Positions 2,535-63,298 of a stretch of 64,000 bases of DNA are shown here, in pieces. The position numbers and the translations under genes were made by a program. The notes beneath the pieces were generated by a model. That model was not told the origin of the DNA and did no database searches. It was given only the letters and a program-made list of their open reading frames with translations. The stretch comes from Eledone cirrhosa (lineage: Eukaryota), in the NCBI GenBank assembly GCA_964016885.1, contig OZ024753.1, positions 4,526,001-4,590,000 of the forward strand, given 5' to 3'. Numbering within the stretch: the stretch's first letter is position 1; every line of letters begins with the position of its first letter.

Positions 2535-2710
2535 TTCTTTCTTCGCCCACCTATTCCTGAGAGGATCGTGGGGACAGAGTCTTCAAATACTCCCTCCAAC
2601 GGATCCTGTCAGAAGCAATCGTGTCCAACTTGACTGGATCCCCAAGCGTAACCAGATAAGCTCATGGATGTTAACTAATCATCTTGCACGGGGTTTACGC
2701 CTGGGTTCCC
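2535..2710 (-). mobile_element. Decayed RTE-clade LINE 3' end
   Basis: Minus-strand translation gives RRKPRAR..IHEL.W.RLGI; homologous to 28170-28230 and 58355-58410. Confidence 0.65.
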
Positions 2711-3709
2711 TACCTAATAATAATAAAAAACACCTTAATTAAAGCACATCTCAAAAGATAATGTTTGTGTGGTGGTGGGGAAAAACAAAGCAAAACATGG
2801 CTTATAGACAAATTCAGCTGGCAAGATGACATCAGTTAATTTAAAGTAGAAAGAAATCCATGAGCAAACGATGAGAAATCTGCAAATTGAGTATTAAAAT
2901 ATAACTTCACTTTTATAAGTATTATTATTGGAAAGGTGTGATATTTACCAATTAGCAATGTATAGAGATCTGGGAGATTTATAAAAATAACATAGTCCAA
3001 TTATCCAGGCGTAATAGAAAATACAGATAAGATTACATTTGCAATAGAGAATGTTTGTGGGAAAGGTGACGGAAACTCCCAAGCATTTGTTTAATCATTT
3101 TCCTGTCACCATTGTCACTAATTACGTGACTCGAGAAACAAAACATTAAAATACTCCAATCAACAATAGAGAATATATAAACACGTAGAAGCATACAGTG
3201 ACCTGGTGATGTGTCCCATAGCGGACGAGGAGTGTATAGGTGCCATACAGAGTATTGGAATATATTATTTGTGATGAGACCTGTAAAAAGGAACCATTAA
3301 CCAGTAAAAATAACGGTTGAATATAAAGAAATATGGTCCTCAGATCTCTGTATAAAATACGCATTTATGAAAACTATTAGGACAACTTGACAGGGCACTA
3401 CCTAATATCAGGCTCATTGATTTTAGAAACAGAAAACTATTAACCTCTAACGGATATTAGGAGATCAATAGTTGTCCAAGAGACCAGAAAAATATTTAGA
3501 TTTATACCTGAGATTTTGGGTATCTGTTAATGCAACTAATTGCATAACAACCAAAGTTTGGGAGCTAAGGTTAGGAAATTCATAAATGATTATGAAAAGT
3601 CAATTAGCATTAATGAACGTCAGAAACATGCAATATATTAAAAAAAGTTTATGCTCTTCTATCAAGGACACACACAGACCGCCAAAAAGATGTACACATT
3701 CATACGTAT

Positions 3710-12520: not shown

Positions 12521-12550
12521 AGAATCAAAGAACTGTTCAAAACATGATTG

Positions 12551-12597
12551 TGCTTACAGCTGTTTCCTCCAAACCGAGGTTTGGATTCTTCGGAGCA
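12551..12597 (-). ncRNA. Type I hammerhead ribozyme motif, family A left arm
   Basis: Exact reverse complement of 12821-12867. Confidence 0.75.
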
Positions 12598-12820
12598 ATT
12601 TATTAATGCATGGACAGTTATATGACCTCCTTTTCAGCCGAGAGACATACCAATACATATTCAAACATTGATACATATTCAAACGATGTGTGTACTGCCA
12701 CTCTAAATTCTGTAATGAATGTTGACCCACAATGTTTGAATATGTATCAATGTTTGAATATGTATTGGTATGTCTCTCGGCTGAAAAGGAGGTCATATAA
12801 CTGTCCATGCATTAATAAAT

Positions 12821-12867
12821 TGCTCCGAAGAATCCAAACCTCGGTTTGGAGGAAACAGCTGTAAGCA
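12821..12867 (+). ncRNA. Type I hammerhead ribozyme motif with CCGAAGA core variant
   Basis: tgct-CCGAAGA-a-tccaaacc/tc/ggtttgga-g-GAAA-cagctg-TA-agca: stem I, stem II and palindromic stem III. Confidence 0.75.
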
Positions 12868-13091
12868 CAATAATGTTTTGAATAGTTCTTTGATTCTTAT
12901 ATTTCATATAACTACTCTGTAAATCATCTGATGTTTTTACATTGAGCTACTTAACTTACTGGTAATAAGGTAGTAATACATTACTGCCTACCACTATTTA
13001 GGGTGTGTGTAAAATACTTACAACTGCTTAAGGTTTTGTGTTTACATAACCATAAATAGTATAACTAATACTATATATATATATATATATA

Positions 13092-17362: not shown

Positions 17363-18108
<746 letters not shown>

Positions 18109-31928: not shown

Positions 31929-31962
<34 letters not shown>

Positions 31963-31965
<3 letters not shown>

Positions 31966-32081
31966 AACCAATAAGACGCCGACGGCTGAGCTCAAGCCGT
32001 TTCGACGGCTAATTCTGGACCCTAAGTATTGAGTACTTTGGTGCGTTATGGTCCACCTGGTTCCTTACCACATTTCCTTCG

Positions 32082-32083
<2 letters not shown>
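31963..32083. mobile_element. Family C minimal inverted PLE-like insert
   Basis: 31963-32019 is the reverse-strand HHR 3' half; 32019-32083 is the family tail in the opposite orientation; TA on both sides. Confidence 0.8.
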
Positions 32084-32129
<46 letters not shown>

Positions 32130-34087: not shown

Positions 34088-34291
34088 TAATATTAAGGAT
34101 ACTATTTATAGTTATGTATATTTTAAACTTGTTATAGTTATGTATATTTTAAACCATAAACAGGGAAGGTCAGTAATTTATTACTACCTTATTACCAGTA
34201 AGATAAATAGCTCAATGTAATAACATCAGTTGTTCTACAGAGTAGTTATATAGAGTTCACAAGAATCAAAGCTATGTTCAAAGCATTTATT

Positions 34292-34338
34292 CACTTACAA
34301 TTGTTTCATCCAAACCTAGGCTTGGAGTCTTCGGAGCA
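34292..34338 (-). ncRNA. Type I HHR motif, family A
   Basis: tgct-CCGAAGA-c-tccaagcc/ta/ggtttgga-t-GAAA-caattg-TA-agtg. Confidence 0.72.
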
Positions 34339-34720
34339 TTTTTCAATGTTTGTACATATATTATACAAGAGGATAGTTTGATAGTCAGATCTAGTAGGTA
34401 GTGTATGCGTTAGTTACACATGGAGCATGCAAGTGTGTCTCTTGCATGCTCCATGTGTAACTAACGCATACACTACCTACTAGATCTGGCTATCAAACTA
34501 TCCTCTTGCATTATCTGTGTTATCTGCCGAATATATTTTAATTTTAATTTTAATTTTAATTTTAATTTTGATTTTGATTTTGATTTTGAATTTGAATTGC
34601 TGTACAAATATAGTATAGTATAATATATGTCACTCCACTGTACATCAATATATATATATATGTATCTGTATGTCTTTTGCGTTGGATAGGAGGTCAATGA
34701 TATGTACAAACATTGAAAAA

Positions 34721-34767
34721 TGCTCCGAAGACCCCAAGCCTAGGTTTGGATGAAACAATTGTAAGTG
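34721..34767 (+). ncRNA. Type I HHR motif, family A
   Basis: tgct-CCGAAGA-cc-ccaagcc/ta/ggtttgg-at-GAAA-caattg-TA-agtg. Confidence 0.7.
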
Positions 34768-35463
34768 AATAAATGCTTTGAACATAGCTTTGATTCTTGT
34801 GAACTCTCTCTCTCTATATATATATATGCGCGCGTGTGTGTGTGTGTATAGATATAACTAACAAGGTTGATTTATTGACCTAACACACCACTACTAGACA
34901 AAAACGAAGCCAGATCATCAGGTGCAATTCTGATATGCACTTTAGTTACTTATTTTTGCATTGAAACATTTTGTACTGCGGAGATAGATCAACATGAAAT
35001 CTAGAATGGTACGTGGAGAGAGGGAGGTGAAGTTTAGAATGTAGTAGATTGAAAAGAAAAGACAGCAATGAATTGAAAGTAATCTGGTTGTGGATAGTAA
35101 AAGAGATAGAGAATGTGATGTCGTGAGAAATAACATTTGATAGGAATAAATAATTAATTAGTTAGATTTAGAATTTGAAAGGAATATGTCCAGTGCAGAA
35201 ACAAATGTCACGTTAATACTCAAATGTAATAGAATGGAATTATAGAGGGAAAATGTTCACATAATGCTGAAATAAGATGTATTAAAAGAAAACAAAGAGA
35301 AAACATTTGAAAAATACAAAAATATCGTTGATTAGCGAATATTTGAAACAAATCATAAGATTGGGTAGCGAGAAATATATATTTTTATCAGAACAATTCG
35401 TTATCTGTAATCTTGCTTCAACTGAAACACTTCTTCCAAATACCTGCAAACACCTGGGTCCTC

Positions 35464-49361: not shown

Positions 49362-49785
49362 GAAAATGTTCAAGACCCCGCCGGCAGAGCTCAAGCCGTT
49401 TAGACGGCTATTTCTGAACTAGCGTGGTAGTAAATAACCGAACTTTTCAAGGGGTAATTCCTTATATGGGCGTGCGATGATGATGCATTTTTGAAGATTG
49501 TAGTTGTCAAAAGGATTGGTCAAAATTTCTTGTAAACACAATTAATTCTTTCATGTCGGCCCAACGTGTGGCTGAACTTGCCTGTAGAACAATGAGGGAG
49601 TGGGGTAAGCCGGTCAAGCGTTGAAAGTGACTTCCATACAGCAAATTGTAAGGAGTGTGGAGGGATTAGGCTAGCTAGAAAGCAGGCGAAAAAAGAATTG
49701 TAGAGGAATCTGAGAGTGGGAAGTTATAAAATTAACAAATTAAAAATTTAATAAATTAAAACTAAAAAATAAAAAAATAATACAT

Positions 49786-51580: not shown

Positions 51581-51982
51581 CTTAGGATAAATATTGATGC
51601 AATTCAATTCAAGCACTCAACGTACTTATCCCCCATAGGAGTGACGGAGTAAATATCGGGGAACTGACTAAGCGAATTTCGTTGAAAACTGCCGTAGCTA
51701 ATGGTCAACTTCCTTCGGACATGCGCCTCCGCAAACCGGTGGGGGTGAATTGGTACTCACAGGGGAACGGATGAAGAACCCAAAAGCACACACTTCGTCC
51801 GTTCCCATGTCGATTCAATTTGGATTGCCTCAGAAACATAACCTTATTATGTAACAAGCTGTCTGACGATGTCGCAACAATGGCACACAGAACAGTGTAG
51901 CCAATGTGGTCATTGAAATATATATCACAGCATTATTATTAAAAGACTTGAACATCTGAAACTACTTCGCTTTTCCTTATTC
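51581..51982 (+). mobile_element. Family E TA-flanked HHR-bearing insert
   Basis: TA tracts on both sides; HHR at 51858-51931; 14-bp hairpin gggaacggatgaag/cttcgtccgttccc. Confidence 0.7.
51858..51931 (+). ncRNA. Type I HHR motif with extended helix II
   Basis: gctgt-CTGACGA-[tgtcgca..tggc.acac/gtgt.gcca..tgtggtca]-GAAA-tatata-TC-acagc. Confidence 0.78.
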
Positions 51983-52156
51983 TATATATATATATATATA
52001 TATATACAGTATTTTCCGTTGTGTTGTAATATAAATATTACACACAGTAGATTATCAGCTCACGTAGAGTTTGCTCGACGGTTCCAGTTGTAGTTCCAAA
52101 AGTAATCCGGAGAAAAATAGAAAGATTTGAATGGATACAGTTTAGTTGAAAGGAAT

Positions 52157-52273
52157 TTATTGACACGTGTTTCTATAACAGTTACATAACCTAAAACAGC
52201 TATCTACAAACTTTTAGTTATGCAGACATTCAATATTTCAATGTTATTATTTACTGTCATTTCATCAGAATAA
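52157..52273 (-). ncRNA. Type I HHR motif, family D left arm
   Basis: Reverse complement of 54135-54251. Confidence 0.72.
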
Positions 52274-52859
52274 TATTACTGAGGACCTATTTAGTTTTTA
52301 TAGAGAATATTAGGAGGGAGGGGTGAAGTTGTTAGAAGAATAGTTGAAGGAGTGGTTTTTCGATAGCAGTGAGAATTCTTGGTGGCAGTGAGTAATTAGA
52401 TTCCCATCTGTTGTTTTGACATTTTTTATGGAATATATTATTGGTTATTTTTCTAAATCTATAGAAGGATTAGAGATAGTAAAGATATGCGTGGTTGGTT
52501 TTGTGTTTGCACTTAACATTCAGACTTAAATTTTTCTTTCAAGTGTACTTATTCTTTCACCCACGCATTCACACACAAATATATTTGCACACCTCCACAA
52601 AATACATATACTCACAATTCACATATTCATACTTACATATATATACACATGCATACACATATATATACACACATGTATTCATGTACATACATACGCGCTC
52701 ATGTGTATACATTTTCATACTCAACTTATCTTTATATTTACACACGTATAGACACACACATATATACATACATACTCTAGTCCATGTGTACACACATACG
52801 CATACATACACATCCACATACACATACATACATACACATATATATATATATATATACAT

Positions 52860-52929
<70 letters not shown>

Positions 52930-53032
52930 CCACACACACACATATACACATACACACATATATATATATATATATAAGCACTTTAATACATGAATACACT
53001 TACATCTAACTATACACATCAAACATATATAT

Positions 53033-53158
53033 AATCTTGAGATTTATTACATAATCACACACAAGAAGAAACTGCTGAATAACAGAATTGAACGAACATT
53101 ATTCTGCCGTCACAGAACTAAAACCCTTTTTTCCCACTACAAGCCGAATATTACATAA
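53033..53158 (+). pseudogene. C-terminal remnant of PLE GIY-YIG endonuclease ORF
   Basis: [41 protein letters not shown] resembles the LE..I...LLNxRxE...CRH C-terminus of Penelope-like ORFs. Confidence 0.7.
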
Positions 53159-53474
53159 AAGAGGGACATCCCCCAACTATATAAACCTTAATCTAGTTAG
53201 AAAAATATAAAAACAATCTCTTCTCAACATATATTAATAACCTTAAATTACCATACTAATAATGAAAAGATATGCTGATGAAAATAGGTACAAATATGCG
53301 ATAATGAATGTGTCTAAAAACGTCCATAAGTATGTATATATATGTGAAAATGTATATAAATAAGTAAATATATATATATGTTTGATGTGTATAGTTAGAT
53401 GTAAGTGTATTCATGTATTAAAGTGCTTATATATATATATATATATGTGTGTATGTGTATATGTGTGTGTGTGG

Positions 53475-53548
<74 letters not shown>

Positions 53549-54134
53549 ATGTATATATATATATATATATGTGTATGTATGTATGTGTATGTGGATGTGT
53601 ATGTATGCGTATGTGTGTACACATGGACTAGAGTATGTATGTATATATGTGTGTGTCTATACGTGTGTAAATATAAAGATAAGTTGAGTATGAAAATGTA
53701 TACACATGAGCGCGTATGTATGTACATGAATACATGTGTGTATATATATGTGTATGCATGTGTATATATATGTAAGTATGAATATGTGAATTGTGAGTAT
53801 ATGTATTTTGTGGAGGTGTGCAAATATATTTGTGTGTGAATGCGTGGGTGAAAGAATAAGTACACTTGAAAGAAAAATTTAAGTCTGAATGTTAAGTGCA
53901 AACACAAAACCAACCACGCATATCTTTACTATCTCTAATCCTTCTATAGATTTAGAAAAATAACCAATAATATATTCCATAAAAAATGTCAAAACAACAG
54001 ATGGGAATCTAATTACTCACTACCACCAAGAATTCTCACTGCTATCGAAAAACCACTCCTTCAACTATTCTTCTAACAACTTCACCCCTCCCTCCTAATA
54101 TTCTCTATAAAAACTAAATAGGTCCTCAGTAATA

Positions 54135-54251
54135 TTATTCTGATGAAATGACAGTAAATAATAACATTGAAATATTGAATGTCTGCATAACTAAAAGTTT
54201 GTAGATAGCTGTTTTAGGTTATGTAACTGTTATAGAAACACGTGTCAATAA
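54135..54251 (+). ncRNA. Type I HHR motif with branched helix II, family D
   Basis: ttatt-CTGATGA-a-atgacagt-[two hairpins]-actgttat-a-GAAA-cacgtg-TC-aataa. Confidence 0.72.
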
Positions 54252-54310
54252 ATTCCTTTCAACTAAACTGTATCCATTCAAATCTTTCTATATATATATA
54301 TATATATATA

Positions 54311-54503
54311 TAACGAAGGAAATGTGGTAAGGAACCAGGTGGACCATAACGCACCAAAGTACTCATTACTTGAGGTAGTAGAGTGGGTAATAGGAACCAG
54401 TAAGACCCCGACAGCTGAGCTCAAGCCGTTTCGACGGCTAATTCTGGTCCAGAATTAGCCGTCGAAACGGCTTGAGCTCAGCTGTCGGGGTCTTACTGGT
54501 TCC
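54311..54503 (-). mobile_element. Family C fold-back insert
   Basis: Tail 54311-54390, then perfect palindrome 54391-54447/54449-54505 carrying only the HHR 3' half. Confidence 0.85.
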
Positions 54504-57220: not shown

Positions 57221-57223
<3 letters not shown>

Positions 57224-57416
57224 TTAATATAGATGCGATTGTACAGGACTAGAACTGTTTCATTGTTTAGAAATCATCAGGAATCTCCTGATGATTTCTA
57301 AAGAATGAAACAGTTCTAGTCCAGTAGAATCTCATCTATATTAAAACCTTTATACTCTGCTATGTATTGAATACCTTACTTACTGTGGTTACCGCCGATT
57401 CAACCCGGAATAACGT
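57221..57416 (+). mobile_element. Family H fold-back insert with HHR motifs
   Basis: Arms 57221-57281/57287-57347, tail 57348-57416; homolog at 61068-61271. Confidence 0.85.
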
Positions 57417-57507: not shown

Positions 57508-57511
<4 letters not shown>

Positions 57512-58201
57512 GAAGGAAATGTGGTAAGGAACCAGGTGGACCATAACGCACCAAAGTACTCAATACTTAGGGTAGTAGAGTGTGTAATAGGAACGAGTAG
57601 GACCCCGACGGCTGATCTTAAGCCGTTTCGACGGCTAATTCTGGACTAAATGAACATTTTTATCCTGGTATATGAATAGCGGAGCTTCTCAGGGGCTAAT
57701 TCAATATATGGTAAAAGTGATTGTCACAAGGATTGGTCAAAAGTCTGTTGTTGAGACACATAATTCTATCATGGCAATTTGTGGAAGGAAGGGGTAGCTG
57801 AACCTGCCAGTAGAAGAAAGAGGGAGAGGGGGTGGAGGAAACCCAGTCGTGCGTTGATAGTGCCAACTACAGCAGGGCAGGAGGTCAAGGAAGTATACTA
57901 GGGAGGAGGAGGGGGAAGAAGTCGAAACAAAAAGTAAAACAATATGGGGTAAAAATATAAGTATCTCCCTCTTTCTTCTACTGGCAGGTTCAGCTACCCC
58001 TTCCTTCCACAAATTGCCATGATAGAATTATGTGTCTCAACAACAGACTTTTGACGAATCCTTGTGACAATCACTTTTACCATATATGGAATTACCCTCT
58101 GAGAAGCTCGGCTATTCATATACCAGGATAAAAATTTTCATTTAGTCCAGAATTAGCCGTCGAAACGGCTTGAGCTCAACCGTGGGGGTCCTACTCGTTC
58201 C
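57508..58201 (-). mobile_element. Family C fold-back insert, longest copy
   Basis: Tail 57508-57587; arms 57588-57827/57964-58203; microsatellites on both sides. Confidence 0.87.
57603..57696 (-). ncRNA. Type I HHR-like motif with CTGAGAA core, family C
   Basis: ccc-CTGAGAA-g..gcta..tagccgtc-GAAA-cggc/loop/gccg-TC-gggg; the right-arm copy (58094-58189) has GTG at the cleavage site. Confidence 0.55.
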
Positions 58202-58339
58202 TATATATATATATATATATAAATGTATCATTTTTTTCTGTGTGTATGAGTGTGTGCATGTGCATATTCACGTAATGCTAAGTACTCGCCGCAGGCATTG
58301 TTACTTCTATTTGTTGAAACTCAAAGACAATAGTTAGCT

Positions 58340-61069: not shown

Positions 61070-61268
61070 TACGTTATTCCGGGTTGAATCGGAGGTAACC
61101 ACAGTGAGTAAGGTACTCAATACATTGCAGAGTATAAAAGTTTTAATATAGATGAGATTCTACAGGACTAGAACTGTTTCATTCTTTAAAAATCATCAGG
61201 AATCCTGATTCCTGATGATTTCTAGAGAATGAAACAGTTCTAGTCCTGTAGAATCTCATCTATATTAA

Positions 61269-61271
<3 letters not shown>
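61068..61271 (-). mobile_element. Family H fold-back insert, second copy
   Basis: Tail 61068-61139; arms 61140-61204/61207-61271; TA on both sides. Confidence 0.87.
61207..61255 (+). ncRNA. Type I HHR motif, family H (mirror copy at 61156-61204, minus)
   Basis: gattc-CTGATGA-t-ttc/taga/gaa-t-GAAA-cag/ttctagtc/ctg-TA-gaatc. Confidence 0.8.
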
Positions 61272-62982: not shown

Positions 62983-63298
62983 GATAGATTTTGAGTTTAC
63001 GTTGGTTGTATACCAACACCTCAGTATGCAGACTGGAGCACTCGACGAGTGCGCAGGTTGGTTTGGTTACTCCGGAGTAATGTAAAATAAAGTTAAATAA
63101 AAAGTCAAATGTTTAAAATTTAGCTTTGTTTATTACTGCTATATATATTTCAGTGACAGCCATCTTTGGCTGTGACCTCTTCAGGCAGTCCGAATTAGTG
63201 TAGTATAGACAAGTACATATGTACTTGAGGTGTATAATTTTGTCAATACTCTGATATGTTCAGTTCCTGGTTGGGTTGTTTGCTATATAGCAAACATT
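62983..63298 (-). mobile_element. Family I TA-flanked HHR-bearing insert
   Basis: HHR at 63135-63189 followed on the minus strand by aataaa and three hairpins before the TA tract. Confidence 0.72.
63135..63189 (-). ncRNA. Type I hammerhead ribozyme motif, family I
   Basis: actgc-CTGAAGA-ggt.c.acagcc/aaagat/ggctgt.c.act-GAAA-tatata-TA-gcagt. Confidence 0.87.

Follow-up and report, generated by a model that had tools for sequence, protein, structure and literature searches.

A recent 5'-truncated fold-back of a Hydra-clade Penelope-like element in a (TA)n tract, probably primed from two fixed sites on one RNA

Among Penelope-like elements (PLEs), the Hydra clade is defined by an RWK motif, a DKT motif, a CxCx5C linker, a C-terminal GIY-YIG endonuclease without CCHH, and a CxxC/CxH signature (Craig et al. 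2021, PMC8557442, in its available sections). The origin of tandem and inverted structures and the bias towards microsatellites are named as open questions in the same sections. For the Poseidon PLE PAc, in vitro experiments in the accessible part of Frangieh et al. 2024 (PMC11167929) show that two adjacent internal reverse transcription start sites delimit the tail, that both target strands are nicked and extended, and that ribozyme cleavage is not required for insertion. Recently active Penelope-like families have been reported in Octopus vulgaris (PMC13282606), with no mention of Hydra in the available part of that text. The locus described here is ordinary in that PLEs with an inverted copy and a one-sided tail are already in print, and a Hydra family from an octopus has been described before, as far as the available text of PMC8557442 goes. 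Since its family is young, abundant and rich in intact ORFs, it nevertheless offers unusually clean statistics on those questions.

The window, a 64-kb stretch of DNA, contains a fold-back at 52007-54291. In a gapped alignment, its left arm (52117-53033, 917 nt) pairs with its right arm (53371-54291, 921 nt), and the two are distinguished by a single substitution, C52386 versus the complement of 54022, and by a 4-nt length gap in an internal TA tract. A sequence-only reading of the locus had described a fold-back of about 915 bp, with arms differing by about one substitution plus TA-tract length, and the alignment bears this out. By alignment, the left arm is an inverted (minus strand), 5'-truncated copy of the 3' UTR of a longer element, covering element positions 2587-3489. 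It carries 110 additional nt (52007-52116, minus strand), which are absent from the right arm. This tail corresponds to the element sequence between two end sites, called hereafter short and long, so that the left arm is long-ended. The right arm is a direct copy (plus strand) of the 3' UTR up to the short end, and includes the TA/TG-rich tract proper to the element. The spacer (53034-53370) begins with the terminal 41 codons of an ORF (53033-53155, plus strand, stop at 53156-53158), containing LE..I..LLNNRIE..CRH and reading toward the tail-less arm, as had been noticed from the sequence. The remainder of the unpaired spacer (53159-53370, plus strand) is the start of the 3' UTR.

Both outer ends adjoin (TA)12 tracts of 24 nt (51983-52006 and 54289-54312), and a stub from another Hydra family, the second one in the window, comes immediately after the right tract. 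The two tracts are equal in length, and a target duplication is indistinguishable from chance within a microsatellite. The central junction (53032-53033) was scored as a 2-nt TA microhomology, and its sequence occurs only once in the 3.0-Gb assembly. As the same architecture was found at dozens of other loci with other breakpoints, chance or a one-off assembly error is a very unlikely source of the fold-back. Contigs from public runs covered only its left part; the left flank is a high-copy repeat, and the contigs end at the TA tract.

With the spacer as query, the genome search yielded 980 candidates, and with the arm 566; the 40 scored for each query were nearly identical to it. From 20 longer loci, a unit of 3601 nt was derived, present in partial tandems and encoding a 773-aa reverse transcriptase (RT) and GIY-YIG ORF. 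The window peptide matches residues 733-773 of this ORF with 100% identity, and the full-length element which the earlier reading proposed to recover by means of the peptide was obtained. Motif and homology searches gave, within the single ORF, the RT followed by a C-terminal GIY-YIG domain (TMGS at 319, YRDD at 352, IIYKC at 650, YYVGST at 664, R at 676), with a GIY-YIG-type core at residues 650-669. RWK is present at 37 and GFRT at 61, which follows the Hydra pattern of a retained RWK and a non-conserved GxKF/Y. DKT, the modified DKG of Hydra, is found at 121; its D and K are invariant in 95 of 95 aligned relatives and its T is kept in 89. The CxCx5C linker reads CNCTYPDNC at 631, and the endonuclease has no CCHH, with a lone Cys between the two GIY-YIG strands. 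CKLC at 729, E735, LLNNRIE at 746 and CRH at 757 place a CxxC and a CxH around the conserved E and N, in agreement with the published alignment rows. These key residues are conserved in the 95-sequence alignment.

A protein search detected 299 relatives at E≤0.001, with 31-43% identity among the matches listed. Pfam gave no match for either the full 773-aa protein or the 41-aa peptide, and one relative matched RVT_1 below the cutoff. Among Atlas neighbours, GIY-YIG was annotated in 13-50% of members, and the PDB returned no significant match by sequence or by profile. With 3601 nt, the unit exceeds the length of less than 3 kb towards which Hydra elements tend; this was not treated as clade-defining, because the available part of PMC8557442 presents it as a tendency and lists one entry of 3045 nt. 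A Naiad/Chlamys PLE, expected to have an N-terminal GIY-YIG, a CxC domain and DKA, was rejected, the endonuclease motifs being C-terminal and DKT being present. We therefore regard it as nearly certain, on protein motifs, that the locus is an insertion of a Hydra-clade PLE. The assignment proposed earlier, from the LLNxRxE/CxH peptide, to the endonuclease C-terminus of a Hydra-clade PLE is thus supported by the complete ORF. Judged by sequence, the element is a new family within the known clade, set apart by eye from Hydra-1_Obim.

The insertion is young. Another locus (L068) is identical to it over 314/314 bases of the spacer and 552/552 bases of the left arm and tail, and three more (L061, L063 and L064) show 1-2 differences per segment. 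Relative to the nearest full-length or near-full-length copies, 0-2 differences per 300-550 nt were counted, in support of the earlier proposal of a recent 5'-truncated insertion. Stop-free frames of at least 777 aa were present in 89 of the 150 best N-terminal protein matches. These values point to a very recent family, which may plausibly be active. Exact patterns detected 1033 long and 1412 short end-to-TA junctions genome-wide, and 134 read-throughs from the tail into the 5' UTR, versus none in reversed controls; loci with two successive read-through junctions exist. Among 70 fetched fold-backs, most of them chosen by their TA junction, TA flanked 69 left and 68 right ends.

Of the 76 long ends on C1:1-185.7 Mb, 41 were paired with a short end in fold-back orientation. 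The unpaired ends on C1 comprised 34 long and 54 short ones. Twenty of each were fetched, revealing 9 and 5 fold-backs, respectively, whose other arm is variant or very short; two of these 40 loci (L097 and L119) yielded no alignment and were therefore not classified. Extrapolating from about 2,400 junctions and the C1 sampling, the genome would hold some 1,900 exact-ended insertions, about half of them fold-backs. Arms reached at least 300 nt in 21 of 50 C1 fold-backs, and at least 900 nt in 12. The family was present at depth in run X3. In an independent deep run, a rough measure of depth climbed across the ORF region in the 3' direction, the pattern that 5'-truncated retrocopies should give. 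Run X1, labelled as another organism, contained one 2.5-kb piece with 5 differences from the element (L061:4670-7170); it could stem from the same or a sister species, from carry-over or from a recent transfer. In runs X7 and X9 the element was seen at a depth of 2-5, with carry-over possible.

Comparison of the fold-backs revealed several regularities. Arm length and central junction differ at each of the 70 loci, and 69 of them combine one long and one short end, the remaining one having lost its short end. Likewise, all 41 divergent end pairs on C1:1-185.7 Mb were long with short, with no long-long and no short-short pair. The two arms of a locus tend to share alleles. At element site 3176, the minor allele was found in both arms at 13 loci and in one arm at a single locus, versus 4.7 and 17.7 expected under independence. 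Over 11 unambiguous but linked sites, both arms carried the minor allele in 38 cases, versus one arm in 1 case (one AGC insertion was excluded from this count because its placement is ambiguous). The mean arm-to-arm distance in 55 loci was 0.50% for arms of one locus and 1.05% for arms of different loci.

For truncation points, 7 compound loci were set aside, leaving 63 simple fold-backs. The long arm reached further 5' in 27 of these and the short arm in another 27, from which it follows that neither arm is a copy of the other. In the remaining 9, the arms stopped at most 15 nt apart, versus 0.96 expected, a number attained in none of 10,000 permutations; in the C1 subset there were 5 such coincident stops in 50, versus 0.78 expected (p=0.0006). 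At the window locus, the long-ended arm stops at element position 2587 and the short-ended arm at 2248. Central junctions could be scored for 61 loci, 9 of the 70 having been excluded after a failed seed check. Sixteen contained inserted bases, and of the other 45, microhomology of at least 2 nt was present in 26, versus 17% in simulations. At two loci (L070 and L124), the arms stop at nearly equal element positions, with 42-72 nt of repetitive filler between them, which looks like the product of repeated slippage synthesis.

A hairpin pattern accompanies the two end sites. The motif CTC-stem-NN-GAG(C/T)A occurs exactly twice on the sense strand of the 3.6-kb element and not at all on the antisense strand, beginning at a distance of 8 nt behind the short end and of 10 nt behind the long one. 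In the window, a motif search places the first at 52072-52112 (minus strand), as a predicted CTC-[3-bp stem, long loop]-TC-GAGCA hairpin. The second Hydra family likewise has two hairpins on its sense strand and none on the antisense strand, each 8-10 nt behind an end, and the sequence of the inner stems varies between the families while pairing is kept. Shuffle frequencies overstate the significance of the motif, since the pattern was written after the four sequences had been viewed. By eye, the hairpin was seen twice in the published consensus of Hydra-1_Ajap, once in those of Hydra-2_Ajap and Hydra-2_Amil, and as a variant in Hydra-1_Crog; it was absent from two of the six new Hydra consensi, Hydra-1_Obim and Hydra-1_Amil, in the available supplement of PMC8557442. 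A literature search covering titles and abstract openings, and lying outside most subscription papers, Repbase and Dfam, returned no description of a Hydra tail hairpin or of fixed double priming.

Together, the family statistics and the hairpin pattern, all of them patterns in genomic sequence, favour priming of both strands on one RNA. We consider, with a probability of about 0.6 for the whole statement, identity of the element included, that the locus is a recent 5'-truncated fold-back of a Hydra PLE in (TA)n, where nicks on both strands primed on the same RNA from the long and the short site. The GIY-YIG domain would nick both strands of the TA tract, and each free 3' end would pair with UA at a start site set by its own hairpin, one being the long end and the other the short end, 113 nt upstream on the same element RNA. 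Both cDNAs would end early, at element positions 2587 and 2248 for the window locus. Their 3' ends would then anneal via 1-4 nt, and each would be filled in on the other. The product would be an outward-facing inverted repeat, whose spacer comes from the longer cDNA and which bears a tail on only one of its sides. Among the points against this reading, about half of the insertions show one end only, inserted bases take the place of microhomology at 16 of 61 junctions, and the hairpin is missing from two of the published consensi. The extension to Hydra PLEs at large, namely that they integrate by fixed double priming, with two hairpins on a single RNA, tandem or circular, each fixing an RT start 8-10 nt upstream, is put forward more tentatively. 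Priming at the long end would need such a template because the second hairpin lies beyond it.

The alleles common to the two arms would also fit two sibling RNAs transcribed from one source locus, or a later gene conversion between arms. A protein dimer could thus have primed doubly on two RNA molecules of the same origin, its subunits being set to the long and the short site. Such a dimer accounts as well for arms that are not nested in each other, and one is predicted for the Poseidon PLE protein in the accessible text of PMC11167929. It gives, however, no simple reason why the same site is never used twice (0 of 41 pairs, 0 of 70 loci), nor why truncation points coincide in excess (9 of 63 versus about 1), and we judge it rather unlikely. 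Shared alleles, near-perfect palindromes and the fixed long and short pairing would equally be obtained if a cDNA started at the long end copied itself or switched template, the endonuclease then cutting the internal TA of the short site and leaving a one-sided tail; the tail is indeed ascribed to endonuclease-mediated resolution in the available part of Craig et al. 2021 (PMC8557442). But a longer short-ended arm cannot be copied from the long arm, so that self-copying fails at the 27 of 63 loci where the short-ended arm extends further 5', the window locus among them (2248 versus 2587). Furthermore, 12 of the 20 sampled unpaired short ends had no inverted arm, and this origin appears improbable.

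Long, near-identical terminal inverted repeats with TA on both sides are also what a DNA transposon or MITE that had captured a PLE fragment would present, or an assembly palindrome. The constant terminal repeats and constant interior expected of a transposon were not found, as arm length and junction differ at each of the 70 loci, and the transposon version is largely refuted. Against either version, arm length and central junction vary from locus to locus, the central junction is unique in the genome, the arms correspond to the 3' UTR of a collinear RT element, and the roughly measured depth in the independent run rises 3'-ward across the ORF region. An explanation of this kind is thus very improbable, and double priming on one RNA is retained as the preferred reading.

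Ribozyme motifs were also inspected. Each arm contains a type I hammerhead-like motif (54140-54183, plus strand, with a mirror copy at 52225-52268, minus strand) having the core, a 4-bp stem II, a 5-bp stem III and a GUC site, with a stem I of 0 bp. Its sequence is nearly constant among copies of the element, and its activity is doubtful. Rfam, run on one full-length locus, detected no hammerhead and only sub-threshold microsatellite matches. Viewed by eye, the 5' breakpoints of 70 junctions did not cluster where the ribozyme is predicted to cut. A further hammerhead candidate, in the tail, was discarded for having an A in its core where the conserved G should stand. Elsewhere in the window, a complete type I hammerhead with a 5-bp stem I and a palindromic stem III lies at 51858-51932 (plus strand), in a third high-copy repeat, and another complete motif with a 5-bp stem I at 63184 (minus strand). 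The third repeat ends at the same left TA tract; the fold-back insertion is flanked on its two sides by stubs of two other families.

The second Hydra-type family is represented in the window by stubs at 54313-54503, 57508-58204, about 31961-32084, and 49372-49421. Its long and short ends follow the same architecture, its tail measures 79 nt, and it too has the twin hairpin. There are 2167 candidates for it in the genome, locus L192 holds a copy close to full length (790-aa frame), and the protein of this second family is 37% identical to that of the window element. The sequence-only reading had tied what it called the system, through the fold-back, to a PLE endonuclease; if the other TA-flanked fold-backs of the window are meant, this link stands at the level of the clade and falls at that of the family, those at 54313-54503 and 57508-58204 coming from the family whose protein is 37% identical. 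Further fold-backs by microsatellite tracts (12521-12897, 17628-18003, 34255-34804, 57221-57347 and 61140-61271) have no DNA similarity to the window family and are probably stubs of other families. A dispersed repeat of 140-150 nt, on both strands, at 1176, 4399, 16788, 27525, 30637, 45295, 45439, 48257, 60348 and 63309, looks like a SINE. A search of 120 frames of at least 62 aa, which would miss short exons, detected no host gene in the window; its only Pfam match was sub-threshold and lay at a distance from the fold-back. The earlier reading had suggested that the locus, if transcribed, might yield a dsRNA substrate for ADAR or siRNA. In a transcript across the locus, 915-916 arm positions are predicted to pair, and fold-backs in transcribed regions, if any, would be strong dsRNA substrates.

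Fixed double priming, if true, would explain in one step why PLEs have an inverted arm and a tail on one side, and would define a cis signal for a telomerase-related RT. The family would then supply its host with a few hundred near-perfect inverted repeats of at least 0.9 kb. With its defined start sites and candidate cis hairpin, it offers a direct route in vitro.

The window element resembles the described Hydra clade in its single ORF with the clade motifs, its (TA)n target, its partial tandems and a hammerhead core near the 3' end, as well as in the inverted truncated copy, listed there for Penelope-13_HM (PMC8557442, available sections). It differs by its length, 3.6 kb versus 1.1-3.0 kb for the listed consensi, which is due to a microsatellite-rich 3' UTR of 1.2 kb, and by its tail of 110 nt, versus 30-40 bp. 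It is also distinguished by the unpaired stem I of its hammerhead and by its very young age, at least 89 full-length frames being open. The Octopus bimaculoides family Hydra-1_Obim shares with it the clade, the target and the motif order, and differs by eye in its size of 2507 bp, short 3' UTR, other ends, and listing without pLTR (PMC8557442, available supplement). Poseidon PAc from Anolis similarly has two fixed internal ends bounding the tail and an AT-rich target, but belongs to another clade, has a short tail, and starts in an AC-rich stem-loop inside the ORF (PMC11167929, accessible part, which leaves aside the origin of inverted arms). In the window element, the two ends instead precede the ORF start, and each has a hairpin of its own behind it.

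In L1 twin priming, two primers provided by target nicks are used on one RNA, and the products are joined by microhomology, resulting in an inversion. There, the internal site taken by the second primer varies, and the two pieces have hardly any overlap. The starts of the window element are, in contrast, fixed and 113 nt apart, and copying the same 3' region twice from them would produce its long inverted repeat.
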